Numbered from the stretch's first letter, positions 1-20,526 are shown. The stretch: 64,000 nt of DNA from an uncultured delta proteobacterium (GCA_963765675.1 CAVXXK010000004.1:128001-192000); one strand, 5' to 3'. Program-made: numbers and translations. The notes: generated by a model from the sequence alone, not told the origin.

Positions 1-861
1 CGGCACCAGCCCGGTGTCGGAAAACTGCTGCTGCGGATAGCAAAGGATCACGCGGCTCGACGATGTATCGAACGCGTTACCCGACACGCCCCGATTCGCG
101 AGCGCCGTGGCTACGGGAGTCGAGGGTGCAGAATCGATCAGCGCCATCGCGCGGATCGTATTCGCCATCACCGCGAGCGCGCTGGCGACGTCCTCGTTCT
201 GCGCGTAGCCGGGAGCGGCGAGCAGCTTCGCGAAGAAACCCATTGTGCCGTATGTAGTCTGCAGCGCCTGGATACCGGTGTAGACCCCGCTGGTCACCGC
301 TCCGATTATGTCCGCGTCGAGGACCTTGGTCGGATCGGCGTAATTGAACGAGACGGTTACCGCCTCTCCGGCGGTCAGCGCGCCGCCCGCGAGGGCGGTG
401 ATAACACCGTTGACGGCATCGAGCGAATAGTCAGTCCCAAGGACGTAGGTCGTCGAGCCCGCCTGGTTCTTTACTACTACCGCGCTGACGCCCATATGTC
501 CCAGATTCAGCGCCTGGGCGCCGGATGCCGGGAAGCTCATCGCCTGCGCCGTGATCGCGGTGAAGTGGCGCGTCGGGTCGAATACGTTGACGACAATCGC
601 CTGGCCCGCTCCCTGCTCCTGGATTGCCGCGAGCGCATAGGGAATCGTATATCCCTGGATGAGCGGGCCGAAGTTCGCGGCGTCGAGCGCCGAGCTGACC
701 AATGTCGGAGAATTAATCGCGGGTGCGACGGAGGGCGCGGCTACCGCCCACGATGGCGCGGTACCGATCAGTCCAATCACGGCGGACTTGACGACGGTGA
801 CCGGATTCGGCCCAGTAGTAACTTCGATCACTTCGACCCCGTGCAGGAAGCTTGCTGACAT
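1..861 (-). CDS. Contractile phage tail sheath protein (3' end outside window)
   Basis: Manual translation from ATG 861: MSASFLHGVEVIEVTTGPNPVTVVKSAVIGLIGTAP..., typical P2 FI-like sheath N-terminus; frame open to the window edge. Confidence 0.9.
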   Translation of the reverse strand, partial: MSASFLHGVEVIEVTTGPNPVTVVKSAVIGLIGTAPSWAVAAPSVAPAINSPTLVSSALDAANFGPLIQGYTIPYALAAIQEQGAGQAIVVNVFDPTRHFTAITAQAMSFPASGAQALNLGHMGVSAVVVKNQAGSTTYVLGTDYSLDAVNGVITALAGGALTAGEAVTVSFNYADPTKVLDADIIGAVTSGVYTGIQALQTTYGTMGFFAKLLAAPGYAQNEDVASALAVMANTIRAMALIDSAPSTPVATALANRGVSGNAFDTSSSRVILCYPQQQFSDTGLVP

Positions 862-902
862 GTCCTGTTACCTCGCGCGGGGACGCTGCCCCGCGAATTC
901 AA

Positions 903-1724
903 TTAGTTCGTGGGCACGGTTTCATCGGCCGCCGCGATCACCTGGTCTGCGAAGGTATAGCCGACCTGTACCGTCTCACCGGTGGAGACCGCGCCGCCCG
1001 CGAGCGCGGTAATAATTCCGTTTACCGCGTCGAGTGAGTAATCGGTTCCGAGACTCAACACCGCGCCGCCCGGCGCGGTGACGACCACCGCGGAGAGGTT
1101 GCCGTTGGGGAGCTGGATCGTTCCCGCCGGGCTGAAGGTAAACGGCGCCGGCGCGAGCGTGACCTGGCTCTGCCCGCTTTCTTCCATCGCGACGCCGCGA
1201 ATGAAAAGTGGAAAGTTCGGCGCCGATGACGATTGGACCGCGACCGTCGAGAGCTCGAAAGTGGTTCTATAAATCCACACCCCGCCCTGTTTGTCGCGCT
1301 CGACGAACTTTTCGGATCGCGGATAGATCTGGCGGCATCCGGGGATGCGGAATCCGGTCAGCGCCGCGCGAACCGCTTCGATTACTGAGTATGCGCCGGG
1401 ACTCGGGCCGCTAGGCTCCGCGCCATAGCTCCATCCGAGGTCGCGCATCATGATAGTCACACCGAACTCCATCAACCGTTCCTGGATAATCGCCGACGTG
1501 TCGAGCATCACGCCGTATTTGGAACCAAGATACTGCACCAGCGCGGCGCCGACGCGATGCGTCAGCCGGTAGGACTCGGGCTGATCGGGATAGTGAGCGA
1601 CCTCGATTCCCGCGACCTGCGCCGCAATTTGCGCGACGATAGCAACTTCGATCGTCGCGATATCGATCGCGGTCGGCGCAGTGAAGGTCTCGCCGTTCCA
1701 CGGCGTATCCAGCATCGCAGCCAT
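903..1724 (-). CDS. Mu gp37-like tail completion protein with extra C-terminal beta domain
   Basis: Position between gp36 and sheath; VAHYPDQPESYRLTHRVGAALVQYLGS...AYSVIEAVRAALTGF motif. Confidence 0.75.
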   Translation of the reverse strand: MAAMLDTPWNGETFTAPTAIDIATIEVAIVAQIAAQVAGIEVAHYPDQPESYRLTHRVGAALVQYLGSKYGVMLDTSAIIQERLMEFGVTIMMRDLGWSYGAEPSGPSPGAYSVIEAVRAALTGFRIPGCRQIYPRSEKFVERDKQGGVWIYRTTFELSTVAVQSSSAPNFPLFIRGVAMEESGQSQVTLAPAPFTFSPAGTIQLPNGNLSAVVVTAPGGAVLSLGTDYSLDAVNGIITALAGGAVSTGETVQVGYTFADQVIAAADETVPTN

Positions 1725-1727
1725 CGC

Positions 1728-2162
1728 CTAGTACCCCTTGAGCCGGCCGCGGCTGAACACGCGCCGGGGGCCGGTGACCTCTTCGGCCGCGCCCGCGACC
1801 GGAGGCTCGGCGTTGTCGGGCGCAAGGCCGAGTGTCAGCTCGCCCGCGCTGACTTTGGTCAGCATCGCGATCGCGTCGTCGTAGCGGCGCCGCGCGTCCG
1901 CGAGATCGTGCAGCGGCCGCAGCGCCTGCAGCCGGTACATCGCGATATCCGACGCGAGCCGGTTCAGCACCTGCGGCGGATCGCTGAGCGGCAGCGCGAA
2001 ACGCGCCTCGAGGTAGCTGTCGATCTCCGCCGACGCGTCGTCGAGCGCCTGAGTAAGCGAATCGGTGTTGACGGTGGTCGCGGCCGGATCCTCATTGGTG
2101 AGCTGAACCAGATCGCGATTCGGATAGCGATTGATAATGTCCTGTGGCTCCGCGTAACTCAC
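1728..2162 (-). CDS. Mu gp36 / DUF1320 head-tail adaptor
   Basis: MSYA...ALDDASAEIDSYLEARFALPL...RRYDDAIAML...RVFSRGRLKGY signature. Confidence 0.9.
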   Translation of the reverse strand: MSYAEPQDIINRYPNRDLVQLTNEDPAATTVNTDSLTQALDDASAEIDSYLEARFALPLSDPPQVLNRLASDIAMYRLQALRPLHDLADARRRYDDAIAMLTKVSAGELTLGLAPDNAEPPVAGAAEEVTGPRRVFSRGRLKGY

Positions 2163-2199
2163 GCCCGGATACCTCTGCTTGATGCGTTCGCGTTTGAGC

Positions 2200-2240
2200 G
2201 CCCCCGCAGGCTCGGCGCGAGGCCAAGACCTGCGGGGGTC
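2200..2240 (-). terminator. GC-rich hairpin downstream of capsid gene
   Basis: CCCCCGCAGG...CCTGCGGGGG inverted repeat in the capsid-gp36 gap. Confidence 0.45.
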
Positions 2241-2316
2241 ATGGACGAAGCCAGCGCGGCGGGAGGAGGAATCACCGCGCGGGCGCAGGGAGAATATGCA
2301 GTCAATCGCGTCATGA

Positions 2317-3264
2317 TTACGCCAGATACTCGCTGACGATCAGGTCCGCGCTGTTGCGCCAGATGTTGGTAGTCGCGACGCTTGCGCTTGCGCCGGTGCC
2401 GGCCATGAATTCGGAATTGAGTAATTGGCGAGCGACTTCTTCGAGCGACGGCGGGACGACCAGGAACACTCCTGCGCGGCCCGAGAGCGCTCCGAACGGC
2501 GCGCCGCCGTCGGTGGTGAACGATCGCATCGCGGCCCGGACCGCGCCGTAGTTGGCGGGATTACTCAGATCGGTATTGCTGGCGTATGCGAGCTGCCACA
2601 GCCCGACGCCGGTGTTCGCGCGTCCATCAACACCGTAGCGGAACTCGCGCCGGTTGAAGACCGCTTCGTCCGTCATCGCGCTCATCCGTGTGACCGCGTA
2701 TTCGCGGCGCAGCTGGAAGATAAACGGACGAATCGCGCGCGACGCGTCGACCAGGAACCAGTAATCTCCGGTGCCCGAGGTGTTGATATTGGCCGCCGTG
2801 GTACCGCCCGACTGATTGAGTAGTCCCACGGGATGCGCTGCGGAAAAGAACGGCTGACCGTCATAGCCAGTCACGGCACTGGGAGTAGCCACCGCGGTTT
2901 TGAGCATCGAGAACAGCAGCATGTCGGGATGCATCTTGGTGTCCCAGCCGAGCTGCTCGATGATCGGCTCATAGACGCCGTAGGTATCGTCCTCGATATC
3001 GTTGCGATCGATCGCGACCGTGTCTTCAAAGTTGCGGTTCACGATCGTGTAGGTATGCGCTTCGAGCGCCTGGACGACGCGGTCGCCGAGCCATTCGCGA
3101 AACCTGGTCGTGCGGCCGAGCCACGGATAGGTGGTCTGGCGCGAGCCGGAACGCACCACGCTCGCGATTTGCTCGTAGTAGGAGGGCGGCTTCTCGAATC
3201 CGCGCTGAAAGACCACGTCGAAGCCGGTGAACAATGCGGTCAGATTGGCGGCGCTGATTTCCAT
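2317..3264 (-). CDS. Mu-like major capsid protein (gpT)
   Basis: YPWLG...FREWLGDR, RNDIEDDTYGVY, YDGQPFF, FRYGVDGR motifs; 315 aa. Confidence 0.95.
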   Translation of the reverse strand: MEISAANLTALFTGFDVVFQRGFEKPPSYYEQIASVVRSGSRQTTYPWLGRTTRFREWLGDRVVQALEAHTYTIVNRNFEDTVAIDRNDIEDDTYGVYEPIIEQLGWDTKMHPDMLLFSMLKTAVATPSAVTGYDGQPFFSAAHPVGLLNQSGGTTAANINTSGTGDYWFLVDASRAIRPFIFQLRREYAVTRMSAMTDEAVFNRREFRYGVDGRANTGVGLWQLAYASNTDLSNPANYGAVRAAMRSFTTDGGAPFGALSGRAGVFLVVPPSLEEVARQLLNSEFMAGTGASASVATTNIWRNSADLIVSEYLA

Positions 3265-3295: not shown

Positions 3296-3778
3296 TTACG
3301 CGGCGGCGGACGCCTGATGCCAGAAATCGACCCACACCTGCCCGCTCGGATCGAGCGCGACCACTTCGCCCGCGGCGGCGTATTGCTGCACGCTCGCGCC
3401 GCTTGCGCGGTCGGTGGCGGTGAGGGTGTGATCGTCGAGCGCGAAGCAGATCGCGCCCAGGTCCGCGATCGTGATCGAGTTGTCCTGGTCGTAGAGGAAC
3501 ACGCCCTTGCGCGCCTTAACCGAGATCGCGCCGGCCGTGCCGGGATTGTTGATCGCGTTCTCTCCGGGAATCCCGTTTACGACGTTCTCGGCGCGTCCGA
3601 CGATCTTGAGCGCGTTGGCGGTCGTAGTGGTGGCCGATGCCGGCACCGCGTAGCCATTGGCGTCGATCGCGAGCATCCCGCCCAGGTACACGTTGGTGTT
3701 CGCTTCGACGCCGAACACGCGCATCCGGCCGTCGTCGGAAAGCTCGGGCGTGTTGCGTGAATTAGTCAATCCAGCCAT
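3296..3778 (-). CDS. Putative capsid cement/decoration protein
   Basis: Lies between protease and capsid; IDANGYAVPA...GQVWVDF pattern seen in Mu-like heads. Confidence 0.65.
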   Translation of the reverse strand: MAGLTNSRNTPELSDDGRMRVFGVEANTNVYLGGMLAIDANGYAVPASATTTTANALKIVGRAENVVNGIPGENAINNPGTAGAISVKARKGVFLYDQDNSITIADLGAICFALDDHTLTATDRASGASVQQYAAAGEVVALDPSGQVWVDFWHQASAAA

Positions 3779-3799: not shown

Positions 3800-4378
3800 T
3801 TAGCGGTCGCCGCCGGGCGAAAGCAGGCTCAGGAAATCCGCGCGTCCGTTTTTGCGCCGGACGAAATCGGCCGCGCTGACGCCCAGTTGCGAGCAGATCG
3901 CGAGCTCGGTCGCGCCGAGCGAGGTGCGTGCCCCGGATGCTCCTGGGGCCATCGGGGGCTCGTTGTCGAAGCCCGATGCCGCACCCAGAATCGCGGGCTG
4001 GCGCGCGACGAAGGAGCTGAAGCCGGCGGGATCGGCGGCGCAGTAGGCTATAGCCCATTCGCGCTGCGCCGGGACGAGCTTGCCGGCGCGCGTCGCTTCG
4101 TCAACCGCCTGCGCGGCGCGGTCGCGCGCGCGTTCCGCGCGCATCGCATTGAGCTCGGTGAGCGCCTTCTGGAACTCCGCGATCGCGACGAAGCGCGCGG
4201 GGTCGAGCACGCGGGTGTTGGCCGCCGCCGCGTCGCCGCCCGCGCCGCTGTCGTCATTGCCGTCGTTGTCATCGTTGTCCCCGGCGAGATCGCGCACGGC
4301 GGCAAGCACCTGCTCAGGCGCCGCGCCGGGATCAAGGCCCAGGATCTCCCGCAGCTTGTTCAGGAACTCTTCCATCAT
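3800..4378 (-). CDS. Internally initiated scaffolding protein (Mu gpZ-like)
   Basis: In-frame ATGATG preceded by an AGAGGA Shine-Dalgarno just after the protease domain. Confidence 0.6.
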   Translation of the reverse strand: MMEEFLNKLREILGLDPGAAPEQVLAAVRDLAGDNDDNDGNDDSGAGGDAAAANTRVLDPARFVAIAEFQKALTELNAMRAERARDRAAQAVDEATRAGKLVPAQREWAIAYCAADPAGFSSFVARQPAILGAASGFDNEPPMAPGASGARTSLGATELAICSQLGVSAADFVRRKNGRADFLSLLSPGGDR

Positions 4379-4942
4379 GCTTTCCTCTGGGCTCGCGGCG
4401 TGGGTTGCCGCCGCGGCGATTGCGGTCAGGTAAAGATTTGGATTGTTGGTCAATCCCGCGCGCAGCAGCCGAGTCACGCGGCCGCTTGCCGGATCGAACT
4501 GGAACACCGGCGAGACGTAGCGATACTCGCGCGCGGCGATCGCGGCCGCCGCGCGCGCGGTCCATTCGACGCGGCCCCATACGGCGCCTGCGCGGACCGC
4601 AAACTCGACAATCCATCCGGCTGCGGGCGCAGGCCGTCCCGCGGGAGCGCCGAAGTCGGTCGCGTGGTCGTAGTCGATCGGCAGCCCGGCAGCCATCGCC
4701 AATGCGCGAGACGCAGCAATCACGTCCGCGGCATCTTCGACCCGGAACGGGCCGCGGCCGTCGCGGCCGTTGAAGACTCCCGCCGGCAGAAGCTCGATCC
4801 AGTCGGGCGCCACTGCGTCCTGCCCGCCCGGATTCGCGGGAGCGGCGGGCGCGCCGGCGGTATCGACCGCGGAAGGACGGTTCAGTTTGCCTGCGTCCAA
4901 TCTGCGGTCACCACCGGCGCGTGTCTGGAGGTGTTTGCCCAT
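3800..4942 (-). CDS. Mu-like prohead protease I (gp32) with scaffold domain
   Basis: WIELLPAG...GRDGRGPF, PIDYDHAT, EYRYVSPVF, GLTNNPNL motifs. Confidence 0.93.
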   Translation of the reverse strand: MGKHLQTRAGGDRRLDAGKLNRPSAVDTAGAPAAPANPGGQDAVAPDWIELLPAGVFNGRDGRGPFRVEDAADVIAASRALAMAAGLPIDYDHATDFGAPAGRPAPAAGWIVEFAVRAGAVWGRVEWTARAAAAIAAREYRYVSPVFQFDPASGRVTRLLRAGLTNNPNLYLTAIAAAATHAASPEESMMEEFLNKLREILGLDPGAAPEQVLAAVRDLAGDNDDNDGNDDSGAGGDAAAANTRVLDPARFVAIAEFQKALTELNAMRAERARDRAAQAVDEATRAGKLVPAQREWAIAYCAADPAGFSSFVARQPAILGAASGFDNEPPMAPGASGARTSLGATELAICSQLGVSAADFVRRKNGRADFLSLLSPGGDR

Positions 4943-4950
4943 CGAGAGGC

Positions 4951-4996
4951 ATTTTGCGGCGAATCAAAAAAATAAATAAGGCTGAACAGTTCAGCC
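4951..4996 (-). promoter_or_regulatory. Putative activator-dependent late promoter of head operon
   Basis: Perfect dyad GGCTGAAC-N-GTTCAGCC, T-tract, then CAAAAT -10; matches the motif at 18959-19004. Confidence 0.7.
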
Positions 4997-5335
4997 ATGA
5001 ACAAATCTGGCAAAAACCCGAACGACTGTTAGGGAGAAAAACGAGCGGCTGAAAAAGCCCGCAAAAACGGCGAAGCCGTTGTGGCAGTGGGACTTCCCGA
5101 AGGATGATGGAGCGCCTTTTTCGAGGTGCGCGCGTGCGACCTGGCCAAAATGGACGTGTCAAAATCCTACTTACAAAACCGGTTTTTCGGCATTGCGCCG
5201 GCGTGCAGACGACGCTTCGCGTCGCCCGACGAGCCGTCGGCATCCACTGGCAGAAGCGGGCTCAGAGCCAGTAGGACCGCCGGCCGCGGGGGATGCCCGG
5301 ATGGCTCGATCTGTGTAGTCTGCGGTTCGATCGCG

Positions 5336-6143
5336 ATGAAAAAATCTGATCCGATAATTGAAGTTTCGGGGCTGGTAATCGAGCGCGAGGCCGCGATCCT
5401 GCGCGGTATCGACTGGCGCGTCGACCGCGGGCAGAACTGGGCGATCCTGGGCGCCAATGGCTCGGGAAAAACCTCGATGCTCCGCGCGCTGACCGGATAC
5501 CTGCCGCCGACGCGCGGAACGATCCGCGTCCTGGTCGAGACCTTCGGCCGCTCCGACTGGCGCGAGCTGCGCACCCGGATCGGGATGGTCAGCTCATCGA
5601 TCCAGCAGCTCATGCCGGAGAACGAAACCGCGCTCGACGCCGTGCTCTCAGGCAAATTCGCGATGATCGGCTATTGGGGCGACGCCGCGCCGCGCGACCG
5701 CCGCGCCGCCGCCACGATTCTGCGCCGGGTCGAGGCGCACGCGCTCGCAGAGCGCCCGTGGGGCTATCTGTCGCAGGGTGAGCGCCAGCGCGTGCTGATC
5801 GGGCGCGCGCTGATGGCCGCGCCGCGGCTCCTGATCCTCGACGAACCGTGCGCGGGCCTCGATCCGGTCGCACGCGAGCATTTCCTGCAATTCATCGAGC
5901 GGATGGCGCGGCAGGCGCGCGGCGCCCGCGATGATTCTGGTGACGCATCATGTCGAAGAGATCACGCCCGCATTCTCGCACGTGCTCGTGCTGCGCAAGG
6001 GGCGCGTGCTCGCCGCCGGTCCGCGCGCGCGAGTGCTCAACTCGAAGACGCTGTCCGCGGCCTTCGGCGCTCCGGTGCACCTCGTGCGCAAGGGCCCGCG
6101 CTACGCGCTGACGGTGCATCGCACGGCCTCTCATGTGATGTAG
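5336..6143 (+). CDS. ABC ATP-binding protein (ModF/YlmA-like), frameshifted at ~5920
   Basis: GANGSGKT, LSQGE, LILDEP; C-terminus ILVTHHVEEI continues in another frame. Confidence 0.85.
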
Positions 6144-6156
6144 CTGGATCGCGAAA

Positions 6157-6195
6157 AGCGAAGGCCCGGATTGCTCCCAGGCCTTTCGCCGTTTC
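6157..6195. terminator. Probable terminator between convergent genes
   Basis: GCGAAGGCC...GGCCTTTCGC hairpin. Confidence 0.5.
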
Positions 6196-6242
6196 AGTGC
6201 GAATCCGGATCAATCCCGGTGATAAACGCTTAGACCGCCGTG

Positions 6243-9128
6243 TCACTTCCCGATTCCCGACAGTTCGACCGATCGGGGCGAACCTTCGGCGTTGTCGGAA
6301 ATCGCGATCGAGGCCTCGACGCGGCCCGCCGACTGTGGCGCGAAGGTCACGTCGATCGAGCAATTCGCTCCGGCAGCGAGCACTCGGGGGCACTGATTTG
6401 CGACCGTGAAAGGAGCCGGCGCCGGGTCAACGCTTTCGATTATCACCGCGACTGAGTGCTTCGACTTTTTGTTGATCACCTTCACTTGTCTGACGCGTGC
6501 AACGCCGAGCTTGACCTTCCCAAAATTCACGCGCAGCGGTTTGATCGTGATTCGCTCCGCGACGGCCGTCGGCGTCGCGGTCGGTGTCGTGGTGGCGGTG
6601 TCCGTCGGGGAGGCGGTCGCGGTCGGCGTCGGCGATACGGTCGCAGTCGCGATGGGAGTGGCGGATAGGGTCGCCGACGGGGTCGGCGTGAATGTCGGCG
6701 TCGCGGTCACGGTCGGCGTCGGCGAGGACGGTGGGTCCGGATACATCAGGACCCGATTATTCCCGCTGTCGGCGACGTAGAGATTGTCGGCGCTGTCGAG
6801 GGCGAGCGCGCCCGGCGCCCAGAGGCTATCGGGACCCAGGCCGTCGAGATCATCCGGCGCGGCGCCCTGGTTGGAGCCAATCGCGCTCATCGAGCTCTGT
6901 CCGAACACCGCGATCGCGGCGGGCGCGGCAGGATATGGCGGAGCAAACTCGAGCACGCGGCTGTTGCCGGAATCGACGATATACAGATTGCCACGAGGGT
7001 CGAGCGCGACCGCCGCAGGCGCGTCCAACGTCGAGGCCGACGCACCTCCGGCATTTGCGATACTCGAGGTAAAACTGCCGTTTTGCCCAAACACGACGCT
7101 CGCTTGAGGCGCGGCCGAAAAAGGCGCCGTGAACTCGAGCGCGCGATTGTTTTCCATGTCGGCGATAAACAGATCGCCCGCGATGTCGGCCGCGACCGCG
7201 CCGGGAGCGCATAGCGTGAGCGCCGTGCTCAAGCCTCCGCCGTTGCATTGATTAGTGGTGAAATTGCCGCTCTGTCCGAACACGCGTATCGCAGCAGGCG
7301 CCGCGACGAATGGCGGTGGGAATTCGAGCACGCGCGAGTTACCGCTATCCGAGATAAACAAGTCGCCAGCGCGATCGAACGCGACCGCGGAGGGACCGAG
7401 CAGCGACGACGCGCTCACCGACCCGGGAGGAGTGCACGCGCTCGCCTCGAAGCTGCCGCAGGTGCCGAAGACCCTGATTGCTGGAGCCGAATCGACGCAC
7501 GGATAAGGACCGCAGGCCGCCGCCGGCGCCGCGAACTCGAGCACGCGGTTGTTGCCTGAATCCGCGACGAACAGGTTGCCGCTCGAGTCGGTCGCCGCGC
7601 CCTCCGGTGCGGAAAGGGTCGTATCACTTTCCGCCACGCCTGCGTTGGGCCTCGACGAAATGAAATCGCTCTGCCCAATCACGATATCGGCCGTACCGCT
7701 GGCAGGGGCCGACGGACCGATCCATCCCAGTACGCGATTATTCTTCGTGTCGGCGAGGTAGACCGCGGTCTGCGCGCCCGCGACTGCGATCGCGACGCCG
7801 CCGGGAGCGTCGAGTCCGGCGCCGTCGACACGATTTATCGCGCCGTGCGCAAAATCCGGTTGCCCGAGCTCGCCGCTCGCCGACGCGGTCGGGAACGAGC
7901 TTCCCTCGTTGAACTCGAGCACACGATTATTGCCGGTATCAGCCGCATAGAGATTGCCGGCGCCGTCGATCGCAAGGCCGCCCGGGCCGGACAGGCTCGT
8001 GGAACTCGGATTTTCTTCGCTCAGTCCGATGGTGAGGTTCGCCGTCGTGTTCGATAAGGTAACCGCCTTTTCGTAGATCAGGATCTCGTCACCTTGATTC
8101 CATCCGATATATAGATTCCCTGCGCCATCGACGGCGATCCCGGACGGTTCGCTCACGACCTCGGTGCCCGCGAAAACCAGATTTGCCGCGGTCGAGTTGC
8201 GCCCCTTCGCGCCGAAGGGTCCGGTGTATTCGAGCGCGCGGTCGTTTCCGGTGTCGGCGACGAACAGATCTCCGGTACCATCGAGCGCAAGCCCGACGCT
8301 GCCGAAGGGCGCGCCTCCGATGTCGAAGCATAGCGTGGACGCGGTCGCGCTCGAGCCCTGGTTGCAGGCCGCTCCGCTCGCGACGCTCTGCCCGAAAATA
8401 AGACTCGCCGCCGTGCTGATGGGTTGCGTTACGCGACCGCCCGAAAATGGCGTGAAGTAAACTGTCACGCGATTATCACCCGCATCGACGACGAACAGAT
8501 TGCCGGCGCTATCGAGCGCGAGACCCTCGGGCCGGCACAGCGTCGCCGCCGAGACCTGACCACTCGCGCATCCAGCGCTGGATTGAAAATTTCCGCCTTG
8601 ACCGAACACGGCTGCGGCCACTGCGCCGGCGATTGGAGTACCATTGAATCCCGCGAGCGGGGCGCCGAACACCGTCACCCGATTATTCCCGCTGTCGGCG
8701 ACGTAGAGATTGCCCGAGCGATCCACGCCAACTCCTGCAGGAGCCGAGAGCGTGCCCGCGCCCGGCGCACCGCCCTGATTTGGCGCCGACGACAGGAAGT
8801 CAGGTTGCCCGATCACGATATCCGCCGCCGCTCCGCTGACGAATCCGCCCGCATCGTCCCATCCGAGCACGCGGTTGTTCGCGGTATCAGCGACCCAGAC
8901 GTGATTGGGCGAGGCGGAGGTATCGATCGCGACCGCGCTCGGCGCCGCCATCCCGGTGCCATCGACAAAGTTGGGTGCGTTTTTGTAGAAATCAGCCTGG
9001 CCGAAAACCAGGCTCGCGACCTGCTGATCGCCGGCAATCGCGACAAGCGCGGCCATCGCGCCCGCAGCGATCACCGCCGCGAAGGCATAGCAGGATCTGC
9101 GCCGGACGATAGTCCGCGCACTTGCCAT
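6243..9128 (-). CDS. Secreted NHL-repeat protein with Pro/Thr linker and C-terminal ASH/Ig-like domain
   Basis: Signal peptide; many GNLYVADSGNNRVL repeats; PTPTATPT linker; CSIDVTFAP...VELSGIG. Confidence 0.88.
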   Translation of the reverse strand: MASARTIVRRRSCYAFAAVIAAGAMAALVAIAGDQQVASLVFGQADFYKNAPNFVDGTGMAAPSAVAIDTSASPNHVWVADTANNRVLGWDDAGGFVSGAAADIVIGQPDFLSSAPNQGGAPGAGTLSAPAGVGVDRSGNLYVADSGNNRVTVFGAPLAGFNGTPIAGAVAAAVFGQGGNFQSSAGCASGQVSAATLCRPEGLALDSAGNLFVVDAGDNRVTVYFTPFSGGRVTQPISTAASLIFGQSVASGAACNQGSSATASTLCFDIGGAPFGSVGLALDGTGDLFVADTGNDRALEYTGPFGAKGRNSTAANLVFAGTEVVSEPSGIAVDGAGNLYIGWNQGDEILIYEKAVTLSNTTANLTIGLSEENPSSTSLSGPGGLAIDGAGNLYAADTGNNRVLEFNEGSSFPTASASGELGQPDFAHGAINRVDGAGLDAPGGVAIAVAGAQTAVYLADTKNNRVLGWIGPSAPASGTADIVIGQSDFISSRPNAGVAESDTTLSAPEGAATDSSGNLFVADSGNNRVLEFAAPAAACGPYPCVDSAPAIRVFGTCGSFEASACTPPGSVSASSLLGPSAVAFDRAGDLFISDSGNSRVLEFPPPFVAAPAAIRVFGQSGNFTTNQCNGGGLSTALTLCAPGAVAADIAGDLFIADMENNRALEFTAPFSAAPQASVVFGQNGSFTSSIANAGGASASTLDAPAAVALDPRGNLYIVDSGNSRVLEFAPPYPAAPAAIAVFGQSSMSAIGSNQGAAPDDLDGLGPDSLWAPGALALDSADNLYVADSGNNRVLMYPDPPSSPTPTVTATPTFTPTPSATLSATPIATATVSPTPTATASPTDTATTTPTATPTAVAERITIKPLRVNFGKVKLGVARVRQVKVINKKSKHSVAVIIESVDPAPAPFTVANQCPRVLAAGANCSIDVTFAPQSAGRVEASIAISDNAEGSPRSVELSGIGK

Positions 9129-13334: not shown

Positions 13335-14813
13335 TCACCAAGCCCCCTCCCCAAACCGAACCGGCGCAGCCCCGCGCACCGGCGTATAGGCAATCTCCGC
13401 CACCTCCATTCGCGAGGCCGCGAACGCGAGCGCCGCCGCGACCGCGGAGTCTCCATGCCGCGGCATCCCGTCCGAGCCGCGAGCGCGCGCGTCGCCGACC
13501 TTCGCGATTCCCTGCTCGACCACGATCGCGCGATGGTCGGCCAGAATATCGGCGTCGCGCGGCAGCTCGATCGCGCCGTCCTCGAACGCCGCCTTGTAGC
13601 GCGGCATATTCTCGCGGTACCACTCGGCCGAGAGCATCACCTGCGCGATCCGCGCTCCGTAGCGCTGCGCCGCGGTCTCGGCGAGGTACTGGCCGTTACC
13701 CCGCGCGTCCATCGCGCCGGCGATAAACCTCGGCAGACGGTCTGCCAGGTAGAATAGAATCTGTTCCTGCTGCCGAAACGGAAGATTGCGCAGCTCCACC
13801 ACCATCGCGGTTCGGCGAGTAAGGTCCGGCGCAATCTGCATCACCCAGATTACAGTCAGATCGCCCGAGCGTCCGAAATCCTCGCCGAAGCAAGTTGCCG
13901 ACGCGCTGTCGAGCGCTCCCAGAGCCGACGCGAGACGATCTTCGCACCACGCCTCGGTCTCCGAGCACCGAACCTCCTCCGGCTTGAACGCAAAATCGTC
14001 GGCGACCGACCATCGGAGCACCGGAATTCCCTCGCGCATCCGCGATTCGATCGCAAGCGCACTCAGGAACGTTCCCGCCGACGCGCGCGGGATGCACATC
14101 AGCTCCTCGCCGGCATTGTCGGCGTAGAGCTCGAAGATCTCGCGCCGCCAGTCCGCCTCGCCCTCGGGCGACCATTCGCGCCCCAGCGTCTCGCAGATCT
14201 TTCGGTACAGTCCCTGCGCGAGCGCGTCGTCGAGGGTCACGCGATGGATCGAATACGGCAGGCGTCCGGCGCGGACGTCGCACACGAGCTGATTGAACGC
14301 GTTGGCGGCGCCGTTGTGGGTCGAGATGATCCGCACCAGCCCACCCCACATCGTAAACGCGAGCGCGGCTTTCAAAAGGCCCGCCAGATCATCGTGAAAG
14401 GCGGCCTCGTCGATCACGGCGCAGCCCTGCTTGCCGCGCAGATTCGACGGACGCGACGACAGCGCGACGATCTTGTGCCCCGACGCGAAGCGAATCCGGT
14501 AGGCAAGGATGTCGCGCGCTTCGTCGGTGACGGCGATCTCCTCGATCGCGCGCGCCGCCTTGTCGAATCGCCGCGCCCACATCGCGGCCGTCTCGACGAA
14601 TTCGAGCGCCATGTCCTTGTTGTAGCCGATGTACCAGCCGTCCATCCCGCCGCGTCCCGCGACTGCGGCGCCGAGCGCGCGATCGGCGGCCTCGGTCCAG
14701 GTGAGCCCGATACGCCGCGACTTCTCGGCGACTTTCACCTGCGCGCGATCGGCAATCCATCGCCGCTGATAGGGCAGGAGAATCGACAATCCATCGTTCA
14801 TTTCAGTCTCCAT
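13335..14813 (-). CDS. Mu-like terminase large subunit (gp28)
   Basis: LLPYQ, EKSRRIGLTW, VIDEAAF, GEDFGRSGD, HGDSAVA. Confidence 0.95.
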   Translation of the reverse strand: METEMNDGLSILLPYQRRWIADRAQVKVAEKSRRIGLTWTEAADRALGAAVAGRGGMDGWYIGYNKDMALEFVETAAMWARRFDKAARAIEEIAVTDEARDILAYRIRFASGHKIVALSSRPSNLRGKQGCAVIDEAAFHDDLAGLLKAALAFTMWGGLVRIISTHNGAANAFNQLVCDVRAGRLPYSIHRVTLDDALAQGLYRKICETLGREWSPEGEADWRREIFELYADNAGEELMCIPRASAGTFLSALAIESRMREGIPVLRWSVADDFAFKPEEVRCSETEAWCEDRLASALGALDSASATCFGEDFGRSGDLTVIWVMQIAPDLTRRTAMVVELRNLPFRQQEQILFYLADRLPRFIAGAMDARGNGQYLAETAAQRYGARIAQVMLSAEWYRENMPRYKAAFEDGAIELPRDADILADHRAIVVEQGIAKVGDARARGSDGMPRHGDSAVAAALAFAASRMEVAEIAYTPVRGAAPVRFGEGAW

Positions 14814-15837
14814 CAAAATTCCGTGCGCTCTCTGAACGCGCCCACTTGCCGCATCATCTCGTAGAGTCTCTCGGCGTGCTCTTCGAGCGCCTGCGCGACC
14901 GCGCGCGAGATCCCGCTCTCGCCGGGAGCAGTGGCTCCGGGAGGCAGATTGACCGTGATCGACGGCGACGAGTTGATCGTGATCGGCGCGGCCACGTTCG
15001 CGCTTCGGTTCCTGCCGGACGCACCAAAATCTCGCACTCGCTCGCGCGACGAATTTGCGAGGTCCGCGCGCAACGAGAATTCGTCAGCGGAAGGCGGTGC
15101 GCGCAAGCTTGCGAGCACGCGACGGATTCGCGCTGGCAGCATCGCGATCGCGCTGGCGGTTTCGCGGGTGCGCGTCGCGCCGCGATATCGCGCACCAGGC
15201 TCGATGGCTTCAGAAGCCATCGCAGGGTCTCAGATTGCCGGTCGGCCGCGATTGTACGGCGCGCGACGCCGCTCGCCGTCAGTACCGCGGCGAGATTGAG
15301 CGCTCGCGGCGCGGACGATATGTCGGGTTCGGAGATTGCGCTGCCGCCCGCTGCGCGGCCGCTCTGCTGCGAATCGGATTGCAGGTTCGCGCGCAACGTG
15401 AGTTGCCGCACGCGAGCGACCGCGATATTGCCTGCACGCACAGCGGCGAGCGCGCGCGTCATCGCCGCTCGCGGCGAGGGCGATCGGCGCTCCGGGCTTT
15501 CACCCTCTGAGCGAGTGCGATCACTTTGCCCTGCGACGATCGGTGCGTGCTGCGCGCGTCCGGCCGCGAGAACCGATGCCAGAGGCCGAGCGCTGCGCAG
15601 CATCGAGGTGACGCCGCGCTCTTGCGGACCTATCGCCTCAGCGGCTGAAGCGGCGCTTTGCGAGGACTTTGCGCGCGCGGGAACTTCGAGCGCATGCAGC
15701 ACTTCGGCAAGCGCATTCGTGCGTGCGCGAACAGATGCGCCCACGCGCGCGAAGGCCGCCAGGATATTCGCGGTCCGCGCGAACGACGCGATCCGTTCCT
15801 CGACGCTCGGGCGGTGCGGATTCAGACCTTCATTCAT
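14813..15837 (-). CDS. Hypothetical Ala/Arg-rich protein (two overlapping frames, possibly one frameshifted gene)
   Basis: Fills the gp27-gp28 gap; C-terminus TINSSPSITVNL...VAQALEEHAERLYEMM. Confidence 0.45.
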
Positions 15838-15870
15838 CGCAAGGCTCCTCGCGATACGCTCGCGGCCTCA

Positions 15871-16341
15871 TCAGAGCTTGATTTCGAGCAGCGCGCTGCG
15901 AATCTTCTCGGCCGCGTCCGGCGTGAGCCCGGATTCGCGCGCTTCCTCGACTCGCGCCGCCGCCGCGTCAACGCCGGCGTTCACGCGCGATCCGGCCTCG
16001 ACGCGCCATCGTTCCGTCTCGATCCCCTGCTTGCTCACCGCACAGATGGTTCTGGCGATCGCGTGGATATCAGGCGAATTTGTTCCTTTACGCTTCGCGT
16101 TGAGCATCTTCTGCATGATCGTGAACAGATGCGTTTGCACCATCCGAGCTAGTGCGCGCTCCATCGTTTCATCGTCGCCTGCGGTTTCCTCGGCGATCAC
16201 GCGCGCCTCTGCGATCGAGAGCCGCACTGCTTCGAGTTGTTCCGCGAAATCTTTTGAATCGTCGTGAGATTTCGCTTCGGCCCCTTTCTCTTTGCCGGCC
16301 CTTTTTTTCTCGTGATTCTCGTCCGTGCTGTTTTTAGCCAT
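15871..16341 (-). CDS. Mu gp27/DUF3486 putative small terminase, short N-terminus
   Basis: FAEQLEAVR..ARVIAEE..DD..ALARMVQTHLF...GLTPDAAEKIRSALL; synteny. Confidence 0.8.
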   Translation of the reverse strand: MAKNSTDENHEKKRAGKEKGAEAKSHDDSKDFAEQLEAVRLSIAEARVIAEETAGDDETMERALARMVQTHLFTIMQKMLNAKRKGTNSPDIHAIARTICAVSKQGIETERWRVEAGSRVNAGVDAAAARVEEARESGLTPDAAEKIRSALLEIKL

Positions 16342-16347
16342 CGCCGA

Positions 16348-16662
16348 TTACCAGTACTTGCGCGGACGGGCGACGCCGGCCGGCGCCGCCTGGTTGTACT
16401 CGACCATGTCGACGCCGCGCGCGGTGAGCCGAGCGAACCAGGTGCCGGTGTCCTGGCCCTCGAGCTCGATCAGATCGAGGTCGGCGAGGTAGCTTAGCTC
16501 GCGGCGAACCGCGTTGAGTGAAAACGGCAGCCGGATATCGATCAACACGCGCCAGATGATCTGTTCCGACACCACGCTTGGACGTCCGGCATCCACCACC
16601 CGCAAAATCCGCCAGCGGGCTTCCTCGCGCTGCTTTTGTTCGAGGTCGATTGCATCAGCCAT
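16348..16662 (-). CDS. Mu gp26-like winged-helix protein
   Basis: RWRIL...VRRELSYL...ARLTARGVD...GVARP. Confidence 0.85.
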   Translation of the reverse strand: MADAIDLEQKQREEARWRILRVVDAGRPSVVSEQIIWRVLIDIRLPFSLNAVRRELSYLADLDLIELEGQDTGTWFARLTARGVDMVEYNQAAPAGVARPRKYW

Positions 16663-16948
16663 AGAGTCTTTCCTTCAGAGTCGCGATTTCCTGGCGCATC
16701 TCTTCGCGCATGGCGTCGAGCTTCGCGTCGAGCGTGGCGCTGAACCTGATCCAGTCCTCGCGCCTGACGTATTCGAGCGGGAGAGACGCGCGCAGTTCGT
16801 AAAGTCCGCGCTCAATTTCGCTCCAGCGGGCCGAGTCGCGCAGCACGGCTTGCTGATGGCGCTCGAGAATCCAGCGCACCGTGCCCACGTTCAGGCCCGC
16901 CAGGGTTAATCCCGCGGTCAGGAAGGCCGCCACCGCGTCCCAGCTCAC
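16655..16948 (-). CDS. Phage membrane/coiled-coil protein (gp25 position)
   Basis: N-terminal TM; LPLEYVRREDW motif. Confidence 0.7.
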   Translation of the reverse strand: MSWDAVAAFLTAGLTLAGLNVGTVRWILERHQQAVLRDSARWSEIERGLYELRASLPLEYVRREDWIRFSATLDAKLDAMREEMRQEIATLKERLYG

Positions 16949-17289
16949 CTGACACCGCCGCGGTTGTCGGCGCGGTCATCCGGGCGATTTTCGGGACGGC
17001 CGTCTGGACGAATTTCGCCGCGGCCATCGGCGAGCCGCCGCTCGTCGTTCAGCTCGGCGGGATCGGGTTCGGTGGTTCGTTTGATCGCGCACGCACCCGC
17101 CATCGCCAGCATCACGACCCCCAGCCCGCGCCCATAGGCGTCGGCGTCGGAGGCGCCGAAATGGCGCGTGATCCCGACCTGGATACACCAGAACACGATG
17201 TAGGATAATGCGCCCAAGACACCGACGACCCGCGCCGCGTCGTAGGTGAGATTGTCCTTGCCCGTGAGGATGTCACTGAGAAATTTCAC
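16945..17289 (-). CDS. Putative holin
   Basis: Two TM segments, charged tail, inside lysis cassette. Confidence 0.6.
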   Translation of the reverse strand: MKFLSDILTGKDNLTYDAARVVGVLGALSYIVFWCIQVGITRHFGASDADAYGRGLGVVMLAMAGACAIKRTTEPDPAELNDERRLADGRGEIRPDGRPENRPDDRADNRGGVR

Positions 17290-17593
17290 CGGGATGCTTC
17301 CCTTGCGCCGGCGGAGCGGCGCAGGCCCGCAGCAACTGATCGCGCTCGACCACCGCGGCCTTCAGGACCACCACCGACGCGGCGTAGGCGCGAATCGTGT
17401 CGGCCGGCGCGGAGTCCGGCGTAAGGCTCGCGATCCGGAGCGCGGGCCGCGGCGGCGCTGCCGCGGCGCAATACACCGGCTCGGGAATCGGGACGCTGAC
17501 TTTCATCGGCACTGCGATCGGCGCCGCCGCACGCGCGCATCCGCCGATCGCCGCCGCAATCCACATCGCGATCAATCTGCGCCGCTTTACCAT
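17273..17593 (-). CDS. Putative outer-membrane spanin lipoprotein
   Basis: MVKRRR..IGGC lipobox, Pro-rich, overlaps the end of the upstream ORF. Confidence 0.6.
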   Translation of the reverse strand: MVKRRRLIAMWIAAAIGGCARAAAPIAVPMKVSVPIPEPVYCAAAAPPRPALRIASLTPDSAPADTIRAYAASVVVLKAAVVERDQLLRACAAPPAQGKHPGEISQ

Positions 17594-17994
17594 TGGCCTA
17601 ACTCCCGCGCCTGCGCGTTGCCCCACTTGATCGCCGCGTCGCATCCGGACGGGACCGCCGCTTGCGCGATCTGCGCGGCCTGCGCGCCGGCCTTTTCCAT
17701 CCCGGCGGACGCTTGAGCGGCGAGGTTGGCTTCGCGCGTGTCGGCCGCCTGTGCGACGCTCTGTGCCGACGCGCGTATCGCCTCGACCGCCGCGTTCTGC
17801 TGGGCGACCGCGCTCTGGCAGGCGGCGTTCTCGGCCTGAGCGGTGGCGAGTTGTGATTGAAACGCGGTAGCCTCTTTGCGCGCCGAGTCGCGCTCGTGAA
17901 TCAGCACGACGGCTCCCAGAGCCACTGCGCCGAGCACCGCCAGAAGAGCGAGCGGCCGCCAATTCGCCGCGAAAAGTGCCAGTAAGGCAGGCAT
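17587..17994 (-). CDS. Putative inner-membrane spanin
   Basis: N-terminal TM plus Ala/Gln coiled coil, downstream of endolysin. Confidence 0.65.
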   Translation of the reverse strand: MPALLALFAANWRPLALLAVLGAVALGAVVLIHERDSARKEATAFQSQLATAQAENAACQSAVAQQNAAVEAIRASAQSVAQAADTREANLAAQASAGMEKAGAQAAQIAQAAVPSGCDAAIKWGNAQARELGQW

Positions 17995-18006: not shown

Positions 18007-18312
18007 CTACTTCGCCGCCGCGGGCTTTGCGGCCGCCGCCGCGCTCGACTGGATCGCGTTTGCGAGTTTCTCGGTCGCTTGCGCATGATGCTCGATCGCG
18101 GCGCTATGCCGCGTTACCGCCGCCGTTGCGGGCGCCGCCGCAGCGGTGCTCGCCACCGCGGACTCGACCGAGGTCAGACGCGAATCGAGCGCCGTAACCA
18201 TCGCGACCAGGTCGGCGACCAGCTTGCGGCCGAACAGCGTGCCGAGCGCGAATCCGCCGGCGAGCGCGATCACGCCGGCCGCCAACGCGGTCATCTTCAG
18301 TGCATCAGTCAT
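18007..18312 (-). CDS. Hypothetical membrane protein in lysis cassette
   Basis: GGAGG RBS; N-terminal TM. Confidence 0.65.
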   Translation of the reverse strand: MTDALKMTALAAGVIALAGGFALGTLFGRKLVADLVAMVTALDSRLTSVESAVASTAAAAPATAAVTRHSAAIEHHAQATEKLANAIQSSAAAAAKPAAAK

Positions 18313-18351: not shown

Positions 18352-18915
18352 TTATTCGTAGGCTCGATTGAGCCATCCGGCCAGAAATTCCTGGTCGCCG
18401 TCCGGACCCGCGTCGCGCGCGAACGCAGCCATCACGCGGTAGTAACCGGCGGCTTCCGAGCGCGTCGCCGCCATCAGGGCCAGAGGCTCGGCCGCGTGCG
18501 CGGCGGCAGCGGTTTCCGGTCCGAGGACGTTGTCTTCAGTCACGCGGCGGCCGACCGCGCGCAGCGCTCGCTGCAGGCATCCGATCGCATGGGCCGGCCC
18601 GATATTTACCGCCAGATCGAAAATCTTGGCGGCGATCGCGCCGGGCGCCGCGTCGAAACCGAACGGACGCCAGTAGTCGCGATAGTAAATCGCGATCGCG
18701 TCGGCACGGGTCAGATTCGCGATGTCGAGCGTCGGGTACTCGCGCGCGGAAATTCCAAAGCGGGTGATTCCGCCCGGATCGTCGGGTGCGGTTTCGATGC
18801 CGCCCTCGTCGCCAAGGACGCGGTTTACCGCGGCGACAAACTCGGGCGAATAGGATTCGGTCAGCGATTCCGGGAGGCCAGATGCGTCGTCCACTGCAAG
18901 ACTCACTGCGGGCAA
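18352..18915 (-). CDS. Endolysin, glycoside hydrolase family 108
   Basis: EGG..DPGGITRFGIS, YYRDYW, FDLAVNIG, FLAGWLNR. Confidence 0.92.
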   Translation of the reverse strand: MPAVSLAVDDASGLPESLTESYSPEFVAAVNRVLGDEGGIETAPDDPGGITRFGISAREYPTLDIANLTRADAIAIYYRDYWRPFGFDAAPGAIAAKIFDLAVNIGPAHAIGCLQRALRAVGRRVTEDNVLGPETAAAAHAAEPLALMAATRSEAAGYYRVMAAFARDAGPDGDQEFLAGWLNRAYE

Positions 18916-18958
18916 CGCGGGCGTTTGGGCGGCGTGGATCGGAGCCGCCAGGAAGTAC

Positions 18959-19004
18959 AGTTTAGCGCAAACGCAAAAGTTTCGTAAGGCCGAGCAGTTC
19001 AGAC
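18959..19004 (-). promoter_or_regulatory. Putative activator-dependent late promoter of lysis/packaging operon
   Basis: CTGAACTGCTCGGCCTTA-N20-TAAACT, same spacing as 4951-4996. Confidence 0.7.
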
Positions 19005-19364
19005 CGGTTTTTTGCCCGATAATACTTTATAGACATACCTCTCCGTGCAGCCTAATGTTCTCGCGATTCTGGACACGCTGACGCCCGCTGTGCGTAGCGC
19101 AATTATCTGCGCGCGGCGCAGCACGCGGTCGGGATGAGCCGGAATCATCACGCGGTCGCCGCCAAACGAACGCGCAAGCCGCGCGGCCGCGCCGATTCCG
19201 ATCGATCGCGTGATCTGATCACTCGACGAAACTTTGTTCGGAATATAAACCCGCCGTCCGCCGAAATCGCGCGCCAGATGCGACGTCGCCTTCATCCCGA
19301 TCACCCGCGTGATATCCCTAATCAGCGACTCGCGGCTCAGGATGTAGCCCTCATGCGCGGGCAC
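18999..19364 (-). CDS. Mor/C-family transcriptional activator (start uncertain)
   Basis: FGGRRVYIP, FGGDRVMIP, C-terminal HTH SVSRIARTLGCTERYVYKVL. Confidence 0.85.
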   Translation of the reverse strand: MPAHEGYILSRESLIRDITRVIGMKATSHLARDFGGRRVYIPNKVSSSDQITRSIGIGAAARLARSFGGDRVMIPAHPDRVLRRAQIIALRTAGVSVSRIARTLGCTERYVYKVLSGKKPV

Positions 19365-19417
19365 GCGAGCAACGCGGGCAAGTAGCTGGAACAGCCTGCT
19401 ACTATGTCCGGCGGCTC

Positions 19418-19594
19418 TCACAGGCTGTACGCGGCGCGCAGATTCGGCGGGATCGAACCGATCCCACGATCGCGATCGTACACCACGCGCCATTTGAGCT
19501 CCGCGACTTCGGCGATGCACAGGGGACAGAGACCGCGACGCCTCGTCGCGACACCGTACCGCACTGGCGCGCGGCACCACAGGCACTTGGTCAT
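19418..19594 (-). CDS. Small CxxC...CxxC zinc-finger-like protein (may extend upstream)
   Basis: CLWC and CPLC pairs. Confidence 0.5.
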   Translation of the reverse strand: MTKCLWCRAPVRYGVATRRRGLCPLCIAEVAELKWRVVYDRDRGIGSIPPNLRAAYSL

Positions 19595-19812
19595 CCGGTC
19601 CGCGGACCGGACGTGGCGGCCGCGATGGTCCTGCTGGAGCATGTGGACTTCCAGACGGCATTCGCCGCGAGGCTCGGACGTGAAGGCGGCCGTGCGAAAG
19701 AACTTCGGACTCCGCGAACATCAGCGGCAGGTCGAGCGAGTCGATGCAGGGGAAGGGTTGTGGATAATCGGCGGGCGCATCCAATCCAAAGCTTGCTTTG
19801 CCTGTCATCCCC

Positions 19813-20526
19813 ATGCCAAAAACAGCTATTCCACAGATGGTGGATATTAGTCAACACAAAGTGTTTACACACGAAGACGCCGAATTCCGATCCCGCCTGG
19901 CCCAGGTGCTGGCCAAGTTCGGTTCGGTGGCCGCGCTGGCGCGCGCGATCGGCGTGTCCAACAACGCGATTTACAAGTGGCTGCAGGGGGACGGACAGCC
20001 AAATCTGTCCAACCTGGTGGGGCTTTCGCGCGCGGCCCGCGTCTCGGTCGAATGGCTCGCGACCGGGCGCGGCGCGGCCGCGCGCAGAGGGGCGGCGGCG
20101 CCGCGCGCGCTCGGAGAAGGATACACGTTCATGCCGCGTTTCGACGCTCGAGGCGGCGCGCGCGGCAAGCAAGGACTGATGAACGATCAGATCGTGGACA
20201 GTCTGGCGCTCAGCAGCGAATGGGTGCGAACGCGGCTGCATGCCGAGCCGCGCAATCTGCTGCTGCTCGAGATCGCGGGCGACACGATGGCGCCGACGCT
20301 GAACGCGACCGACCTCGCGATAGTGGATTTGGGAGAGCCGCGCTTTCGGCGCGACGCGATTTACGTGCTGCGCCATGCGGACGAGCTTGCGGTGCGCAGG
20401 TTGCAGCGCCGTCCCGACGGCAAGTTGATCATCAAGTGCGACAATCCAGCATACGAGCCGGTAGTAGCGGCGCCCGAGACGATCGCGATCATCGGCAACG
20501 TGATCTGGTCAGGCACGCGCCGGTAG
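19813..20526 (+). CDS. CI-like repressor (XRE HTH plus S24-like domain); start uncertain
   Basis: ALARAIGVSNNAIYKW...VSVEWLATG; GDTMAPTL, DNPAYEP. Confidence 0.9.
   Translation: MPKTAIPQMVDISQHKVFTHEDAEFRSRLAQVLAKFGSVAALARAIGVSNNAIYKWLQGDGQPNLSNLVGLSRAARVSVEWLATGRGAAARRGAAAPRALGEGYTFMPRFDARGGARGKQGLMNDQIVDSLALSSEWVRTRLHAEPRNLLLLEIAGDTMAPTLNATDLAIVDLGEPRFRRDAIYVLRHADELAVRRLQRRPDGKLIIKCDNPAYEPVVAAPETIAIIGNVIWSGTRR

Follow-up and report, generated by a model that had tools for sequence, protein, structure and literature searches.

We analyzed a 64,000-nucleotide stretch of DNA, hereafter the window (G000:C4:128001-192000, on CAVXXK010000004.1 of GCA_963765675.1), together with related genomes of Candidatus Binataceae (phylum Binatota), an uncultured soil and peat lineage in which every genome is a metagenome-assembled genome (MAG). 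Window positions 1-20526 belong to an element of about 31.5 kb (G000:C4:117011-148526) that is probably a domesticated descendant of a Mu-like phage, residing at a fixed chromosomal site, maintained by its host, and making DNA-packaging particles similar to gene transfer agents (GTAs). Because of its vertical descent, fixed locus, purifying selection, lack of mobility genes, and persistence in two separate loci of some genomes, the data support the host-maintained particle system that an earlier note on this DNA had suggested; the further suggestion of that note, a GTA, stays the leading interpretation of its function.

The genome carrying the window (G000) was 4.52 Mb in length and consisted of 16 contigs, with 95.6% completeness and 4.3% contamination. 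Every open reading frame (ORF) of at least about 100 amino acids (aa) in C4:117011-148526 was scanned, and genes were identified by family searches with Pfam and PHROGs. A scan of species-representative genomes yielded 119 related stretches, of which the best 80 were kept (the 80 loci below). Several of the counts given here take in genomes flagged as unpublished (G010, G043, G067, G083, G095, G108).

The late half of a Mu-like phage was retained in the element: a repressor, a Mor-type activator, a lysis cassette, a gp27-like protein, terminase, portal, protease/scaffold, capsid, head completion, and a complete-looking contractile tail. The late genes were located on the minus strand (window 1-19814) and followed the Mu order, as the earlier note had read them, and its "cement" gene corresponded to a structural protein of phrog_1731. 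The intact motifs claimed there could not be confirmed, given the frameshifts of the portal and tape-measure-like genes and the replacement of Ser and Lys by Thr and Arg in the S24 domain of the repressor. The boundaries given in that note (1-20526) enclosed genes that we recovered, but fell short of the full extent, since the tail module runs about 11 kb beyond the left window edge, to G000:C4:117011. Leftward of the window, this module comprised the remainder of the sheath gene (512 aa in total), tube, tail chaperone, an RRM_1 protein, and gpU-, gpX-, and gpD-like proteins, followed by the spike, gpW-, gpJ-, and gpI-like baseplate proteins, a 158-aa ORF, a fiber protein with a gp53-like C-terminus, and an 899-aa ORF. 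Host genes resembling those of Mur ligase and alanine racemase adjoined the distal (left) end of the tail module. The remaining observations of the note on the cluster were also borne out: it was split by host-type genes (the insert between protease and portal), it contained a host repeat (five gaps held repeats dispersed over the genome), and its G+C content was host-like (63.4% versus 61.5% for the genome).

The early half was missing. The distance from the repressor start to the likely Mor start was about 430 bp, within the 1 kb noted earlier, and this interval occupies the place which in Mu is filled by ner, A, B, and the other early genes; in the window, it held no ORF matching a Pfam or PHROGs family. 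Neither a transposase nor an integrase or replication gene was present among the scanned ORFs of C4:117011-148526. The MuA core domain DDE_2 (PF02914) had no match in the whole genome of G000 and none in 10 genomes of the genus, confirming the absence of transposase and early region that had been read from the window. The search works in this family, because 5 of its 121 genomes were positive, and in these MuA never shared a contig with the conserved capsid. For Mu ends (attL/attR with transposase binding sites, pac), the borders leave little room: the repressor stop was only about 110 bp from the host gene in G009 and G005, and the last fiber-like gene was 34 bp from the left host gene.

Two phages help to describe this loss. 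Ralstonia phage RS138, a transposable Mu-like phage and the best match of the capsid in the phage collection (44%), shares with Mu and the element the late-gene order and families, namely activator, endolysin, spanin, gp27-like protein, terminase, portal, protease, structural protein, capsid, and gp36-like protein. In RS138, however, the repressor and the late activator are separated by genes for a transposase and transposition proteins and by about 10 kb of early genes, and the portal is followed by genes for a minor head protein (F) and a gpG-like protein, all of which the element lacks; the tail of RS138 is of the siphovirus type, whereas that of the element is contractile. Within the family, a genuine Mu-like transposable prophage of G081 (C16; L161-L163, G081:C16:158001-218000) shares with the element the helix-turn-helix (HTH) repressor (36% identity), Mor (41%), endolysin (63%), and RRM gene (55%). 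It differs in having MuA (an 809-aa open frame, DDE_2 6e-39), with repressor and Mor lying about 6 kb apart; the terminase was only 28% identical, its capsid was not detectably related, and such prophages were sporadic (5/121). Because of these two comparisons, the element looks like a MuA-bearing phage of the G081 type from which the early region has been removed.

The capsid gene, the most conserved gene of the element, was present in all 10 other species of the genus (91-99% identity). In the first sample, 9 of 14 genomes from other genera encoded it (60-89%), as did none of 16 from outside the family. In the wider sample it was encoded in 80 of 121 family genomes, 58 of 77 high-quality genomes, and 22 of 30 genera, mostly as a single copy and without stops; in all 80 of the best loci among the 119 it was full-length and had neighboring head and tail genes. 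Genomes without it clustered: G011, G015, G016, and G017 formed one RpoB clade, and whole genera lacked the gene (g9, 0/5; g36, 0/6). Its presence follows clades and is not patchy. Second, more distant capsids were observed at G004:C22:7835-8785 (73%) and G042:C15:1814-2797 (49%); they may belong to related active phages, extra elements, or contamination.

The alanine-racemase-like and Mur-ligase-like flank at the tail end was shared by 7 of 11 assessable genomes from four genera (G009, G005, G023, G125, G115, G099, G048), and was not found at this end in G012, G014, G052, and G071. At the opposite end, the ABC-transporter operon was located beside the repressor in G009 and G005. Among 13 genomes (the window and 12 fetched loci), the repressor adjoined Mor with no transposase in 12. 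The element was contiguous in 12 genomes (G000, G009, G012, G022, G024, G115, G099, G048, G052, G071, G136, G051) and split in four. In G005, the tail and the head genes up to the NHL gene were on contig C1, and C2 held the ORFs that start with p220, include portal and terminase, and end with the repressor, beside the usual ABC-transporter flank; all compared element genes were full-length in G005. G023 was split likewise, over C84 and C1. The closed chromosome of G125 had its capsid gene at 3.96 Mb and its terminase and repressor genes at 2.71 Mb (1.25 Mb apart), and in the six-contig assembly of G127 capsid and terminase were on different contigs. The large terminase frame was open in all four. 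Since a phage cannot travel as two loci, the constraint on these split copies must act via the host.

Pairwise ratios of non-synonymous to synonymous substitution (dN/dS) were calculated by the NG86 method, and medians were taken from the per-gene table, excluding the 899-aa fiber-like gene, the insert genes, the partial matches of sheath, gp37, and p101 for G009, and p101 for G005. In comparison with G009, 26 element genes had a median dN/dS of 0.08 (0.12 for six flanking host genes) and a median dS of 0.25 (flanks, 0.31); with G005, the corresponding values for 28 element genes were 0.08 (0.09 for six flanking host genes) and 0.51 (0.48). Capsid, portal, and terminase were among the most constrained genes, with values of 0.02-0.08 within the genus. 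The capsid values overall ranged from 0.02 to 0.13, and the large terminase, with values of 0.02 and 0.08, had an open frame without stops in 10 relatives. Mor had a value of 0.40, computed over its long ORF. Against G023 and G012, dS was about 0.8 to >2.5 and in some cases not computable, i.e., near or beyond saturation; about 30 genes had nevertheless kept open frames, and most of their dN/dS values were 0.1-0.4.

RpoB and capsid distances of 16 genomes were correlated (Mantel r = 0.72, p = 0.0003), with r = 0.94 after dropping G012, G014, and G020, and the main groups of the two single-gene trees agreed. The capsid of G012 was too close, and G014 and G020 had a divergent version (capsid 57-62%) with a different gene order. 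As these three misfit the host tree, some replacement or transfer has taken place, and descent is vertical in the main rather than throughout. As judged from substitution ratios and trees, the element has demonstrably been under purifying selection and vertically inherited through much of Candidatus Binataceae. For the conditions that the earlier note had named as refuting its reading, the outcomes were in its favor: presence followed clades, orthologues were located at a conserved locus, capsid and RpoB phylogenies largely agreed, dN/dS was about 0.08 with dS as in the flanks, and no MuA was linked to the element.

These data bear directly on whether an ordinary infectious temperate phage with one preferred site infected each species separately. 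MuA-bearing Mu-like phages do occur in the family, one of them sharing Mor and endolysin with the element, and the three misfitting capsids also speak for such infections. However, no transposase, integrase, or replication gene was encoded in or beside the element, only about 110 bp lay between the repressor and the host gene in G009 and G005, dS matched that of the flanks, host repeats and host genes were located inside the cluster, and four species had the genes in two loci. The infectious phage is therefore a very improbable explanation, close to refuted.

Several findings weigh against a functional, host-maintained, GTA-like element, in addition to the three misfitting capsids. The capsid gene was absent from 41 of the 121 family genomes. 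One extra base at about 12888-12892 divided the portal gene of G000 in two, leaving 56 codons at the 5' end and a main body of 393 codons, the tape-measure-like gene of this genome was frameshifted near 15224, and the ABC ATPase of the insert was frameshifted at about 5912; all three are single-base indels specific to G000. In G009, the frames of the sheath, gp37, and gpD-like genes were broken; in G099 (L173-L175), some 6 kb of baseplate genes, reaching from the gpJ-like to the tube gene, were deleted; most of the protease gene was missing from G024 (L117); and G023, the exception among the 13 genomes above, had Mor but no S24 repressor anywhere in its genome. As the losses in G099, G024, and G023 show, decay does occur in some lineages, and the copy in the window may itself be damaged. 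The minor head protein F of Mu (PF04233) had no match in the genome, and in G022 the portal gene abuts the protease gene. The assignment of a tape-measure gene is a weak one, drawn mainly from position and composition. The S24 dyad was lost in several lineages, which could mean a permanently silenced element. If the head takes up a Mu-sized headful, a contiguous cluster of 31.5 kb could fit into it, and the particle would then not be, as is classical for GTAs, too small to carry its own genes; the genes lying in two distant loci of G005, G023, G125, and G127 could not travel together. Finally, the element is described here from the genes of uncultured MAGs, and no RNA source was listed for window 11600-16400.

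Much of this damage can be read in another way. The portal gene was a single ORF in five relatives (G009, G005, G012, G022, G014), and the extra base was missing from three public-run contigs of related strains (93-96% identity at the site); among the public-run contigs compared, none of at least 99% identity covered the frameshift sites of G000. The tape-measure-like gene was intact in G009 and G005. Frame discordance with G009 was found in 5 of 30 element genes and 4 of 23 flanking host genes, and with G005 in 2 of 31 and 3 of 23, respectively. Element-specific decay was rejected as the cause of the G000 frameshifts, as flanking host genes were equally frame-discordant; assembly error is sufficient to explain them, and real recent decay may have contributed. 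Among the 80 loci, frame breaks were concentrated in a small number of long-read MAG assemblies. Single-base breaks were numerous in L059, L060, L085, and L032 and in the host flanks of G009 and G005, affecting genes of phage origin as well as those of the host. Pseudogene calls from long-read MAG records are limited because host genes there break equally.

The lesions listed bring up an inert remnant as a rival, in which the early region of a prophage was lost in the distant past and the defective remainder decays slowly, any conserved genes being kept for side functions such as immunity or lysis. The frameshifts of G000 and G009, the deletions of G099 and G024, the loss of the element from whole clades, and the non-catalytic S24 domain of several lineages are consistent with it. 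We consider it quite unlikely: about 30 genes open at saturated dS (above 1 to G023 and G012) with dN/dS of 0.1-0.3 are something that neutral decay cannot yield, much of the apparent damage may be assembly noise, given frame discordance equally common in the host flanks, and the element was kept after its split into two loci.

If the element is instead a maintained, GTA-like particle system, its genes suggest how it would work. Upon release of repression, the Mor-like activator would switch on the late operons, and the terminase would fill heads with chromosomal DNA, because the element can neither replicate nor excise. Tails would then join the heads, and endolysin, holin, and spanins would lyse the cell. 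The delivered DNA would persist only by recombination, so that the element would act like a GTA.

Two genes of the packaging and control modules have derived features. In six other genera, the gp27-like protein had a conserved N-terminal segment of about 45 residues and matched the Pfam model over positions 2-172: the Phage_Mu_Gp27 match covered 2-172 and 4-172 in G012 and G023, and 49-172 in G000. In G000, G009, and G005, this segment was replaced by about 30 charged, low-complexity residues (alignment A1). A model of the full-length protein (pLDDT 77.8) consisted of three short helices followed by long helices. The sequence search of PDB with the N-terminal domain gave nothing below E = 0.3, and Foldseek with the model gave no match with E < 1, homeodomain-like three-helix folds being among insignificant matches only; the lost domain was probably DNA-recognizing. 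Its loss in the genus would favor packaging without sequence specificity.

The repressor of G000 had GDTM and VRRL where the S24 dyad has GDSM and VKRL, at positions which we take, from LexA, to be those of the catalytic Ser and Lys. Among 12 aligned orthologues, Lys was replaced by Arg in all three compared species of the genus and Ser by Thr in G000, Ser was replaced by Ala in G012, G048, and G052, and the dyad was intact in six other genomes. A non-cleavable repressor together with a Mor-type activator would keep particle production under cellular control.

Mu-type terminases package from integrated copies. With the transposition module and the DNA-recognizing domain of the gp27-like protein lost, such packaging in situ could become packaging of chromosomal DNA at large. 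It is possible, and we propose it tentatively, that Binataceae carry an independently evolved GTA that arose from a transposable Mu-like phage and whose production is controlled by the cell.

The main rival is a killer particle similar to PBSX or pyocins, the contractile tail of which kills relatives, DNA packaging being a by-product and heads being kept for assembly or stability. PBSX and R-pyocins are chromosomally fixed defective particles with contractile tails, a repressor-controlled late activator, and release by lysis, and PBSX packages host DNA. The complete-looking tail module agrees with such a function, as does the divergent S24 repressor/activator pair followed by lysis genes, which resembles R-pyocin control. 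The 899-aa ORF (L001:9011-11710, -; G000:C4:117011-119710), which had no family match, fits selection on target range: it was only 43% identical between G000 and G009, two species with 99% identity in both capsid and RpoB, whereas the G000 ORF was 82% identical to that of G005; it was missing from G115, and it behaves like an exchangeable receptor-binding cassette. Such diversification of a fiber, however, fits a GTA equally well, and capsid, portal, and terminase were among the most constrained genes, whereas known tailocins shed head genes. A killer particle is thus unlikely. An R-type tailocin in the strict sense was rejected, since capsid, portal, terminase, and protease were present and the head genes were as constrained as the tail genes. 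The element further differs from these systems in that PBSX and R-pyocins are built from unrelated gene families, pyocins have no head genes, and PBSX kills and does not transfer; to our knowledge, neither is derived from a Mu-like phage.

Among the closest known systems are the RcGTA-type GTAs of Alphaproteobacteria. In both, head, tail, and lysis genes of phage origin are present, and genes for replication and integration are absent; both are chromosomally fixed, have been passed on vertically in a large clade with purifying selection acting on them, and tolerate a distribution over several loci. The small terminase of RcGTA has no DNA-recognition domain, which is a further likeness to the gp27-like protein of the element. 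Regarding the differences, RcGTA has an HK97-type head and a short non-contractile tail, versus a Mu-type head and a contractile tail of the P2/Mu type; it is controlled by the host cell cycle and quorum sensing, versus a retained phage-type repressor and activator; and its hosts belong to another phylum than Binatota. A reduced head and random packaging are not indicated for the element, which is described from gene content.

A handful of independent GTA origins are known, and we know of none from a Mu-like phage. Full-text searches yielded no paper linking Binatota with GTAs. The titles and passages of the literature matches listed held no description of a GTA derived from a Mu-like phage, and by title or passage those mentioning Binatia together with prophages (e.g., 10.1101/2022.03.11.484050) appeared unrelated. 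A GTA-like domesticated prophage of Mu-like ancestry was therefore not previously reported among these matches.

If the proposed function is correct, GTAs would have arisen independently once more, for the first time from a Mu-like ancestor with a contractile tail and for the first time in Binatota, and the element would suggest a way in which genes are exchanged in a soil and peat lineage that is abundant yet uncultured. A family-wide particle system of the Mu type would add a route of phage domestication that starts from packaging machinery active on integrated DNA. The states found within the family (contiguous clusters, host inserts, division over two loci, a small-terminase-like protein that has lost its putative DNA-binding domain, and a repressor that no longer cleaves itself) amount to a natural experiment in the conversion of a prophage into a host organ.

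The features of the window that belong to the element and its borders are listed in Table 1.

Table 1. Genes and other features in the window portion of the element (window coordinates; TM, transmembrane; SAM, S-adenosylmethionine)
Feature	Position	Strand	Evidence or remark
Tail sheath, 5' part	1-861	-	phrog_23 3.7e-34; first 287 of 512 codons
Mu gp37-like head-tail joining/tail terminator	903-1724	-	Pfam Gp37 1e-30
Mu gp36-like head completion protein	1728-2162	-	Pfam Phage_Mu_Gp36 1.2e-34
Major capsid, Mu gpT family	2317-3264	-	Pfam Mu-like_gpT 4.1e-96
Virion structural protein between protease and capsid	3296-3778	-	phrog_1731 4.5e-25
Mu gpI-like head protease/scaffold	3800-4942	-	Pfam Mu-like_Pro 1.3e-77
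Non-phage-type insert between protease and portal	4943-11634		Pfam
Dispersed repeat	4976-5037		
ABC-type ATPase (insert)	5126-6409	+	frameshifted in G000
Dispersed repeat	5206-5260		
NHL-repeat/Ig-like protein, 961 aa (insert)	6243-9128	-	Pfam
TM/secreted ORF (insert)	9406-10068	+	
Dispersed repeat	10130-10221		
Lipoprotein-like ORF (insert)	10285-10767	+	
SAM methyltransferase (insert)	10792-11592	+	Pfam
Portal gene	11635-13018 (body 11635-12816)	-	Pfam Portal_Mu 8.4e-100
Dispersed repeat copy, terminase-portal gap	13220-13330		many blastn matches of 80-96%, on most contigs
Large terminase subunit	13335-14816	-	phrog_2 5.5e-31
Tape-measure-like gene, low-complexity, conserved C-terminus	14816-15837	-	C-terminal profile, position
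Mu gp27-like, small-terminase-like	15871-16341	-	Pfam Phage_Mu_Gp27, positions 49-172 of 173
gp26-like	16348-16662	-	phrog_436 3e-26
gp25-like	16655-16948	-	phrog_462 2e-15
Holin-like ORF, two hydrophobic segments	16945-17289	-	hydropathy of translation
o-spanin with lipobox, overlapping i-spanin	17273-17593	-	lipobox read from translation
i-spanin, Rz-like	17587-17994	-	phrog_214
Single-TM ORF	18007-18312	-	hydropathy
GH108 endolysin	18352-18915	-	Pfam Glyco_hydro_108 and PG_binding_3
Mor/C-type late activator	18999-19364	-	Pfam Mor 8e-11, phrog_836 2.8e-22
Divergent control region, activator to repressor	19365-19797		no ORF with family match
HTH and S24 (LexA/CI-like) repressor	19798-20526	+	Pfam Peptidase_S24 1.3e-17, HTH_3
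Dispersed repeats at right border	20790-20980		precede host ABC-transporter operon (from 20973)

The Mor domain was formed by residues 164-268, the last 105, of a long ORF at 18999-19814. The gene probably starts with the GTG at 19364, and the long ORF, which extends to 19814, is probably coding only in part.

Pfam PhageMin_Tail had no match in the genome of G000, and the ORF in the tape-measure slot of the window's genus encoded the RRM_1 RNA-binding protein. The gene that we call tape-measure-like had about 270-440 codons; the profile of its C-terminus matched 57 stop-to-stop ORFs at about 53 distinct places. Across the family, it was mostly located in the slot between the RRM gene and gpU, while in the window's genus and in G013 it was located between gp27 and terminase; it has apparently been relocated there from the tail module. 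The protein matched no Pfam family and nothing in the phage collection, and its fold model was helical, of low confidence (mean pLDDT 52.8). The neighboring RRM_1 gene (96 aa, L001:17968-18258, -; G000:C4:125968-126258; Pfam 1.2e-22), located between the chaperone and gpU genes, was kept in the tail module of 55 of the 80 related loci with 44-95% identity, and its relative in G081 likewise lies inside the MuA-bearing prophage.

The insert between protease and portal was confined to the clade with capsid identity of at least 83%. The stand-alone ABC ATPase and the NHL-repeat gene of the insert are convergent (5126-9128) and were co-inherited with the element in this clade. A role of the insert in defense was considered and rejected, as padloc gave merely generic ABC-ATPase and repeat similarities and no specific family. 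The dispersed repeats in the five intergenic gaps were about 60-180 bp in length, resembled repetitive extragenic palindromic (REP) sequences or miniature inverted-repeat transposable elements (MITEs), and were present in many copies on most contigs of G000.

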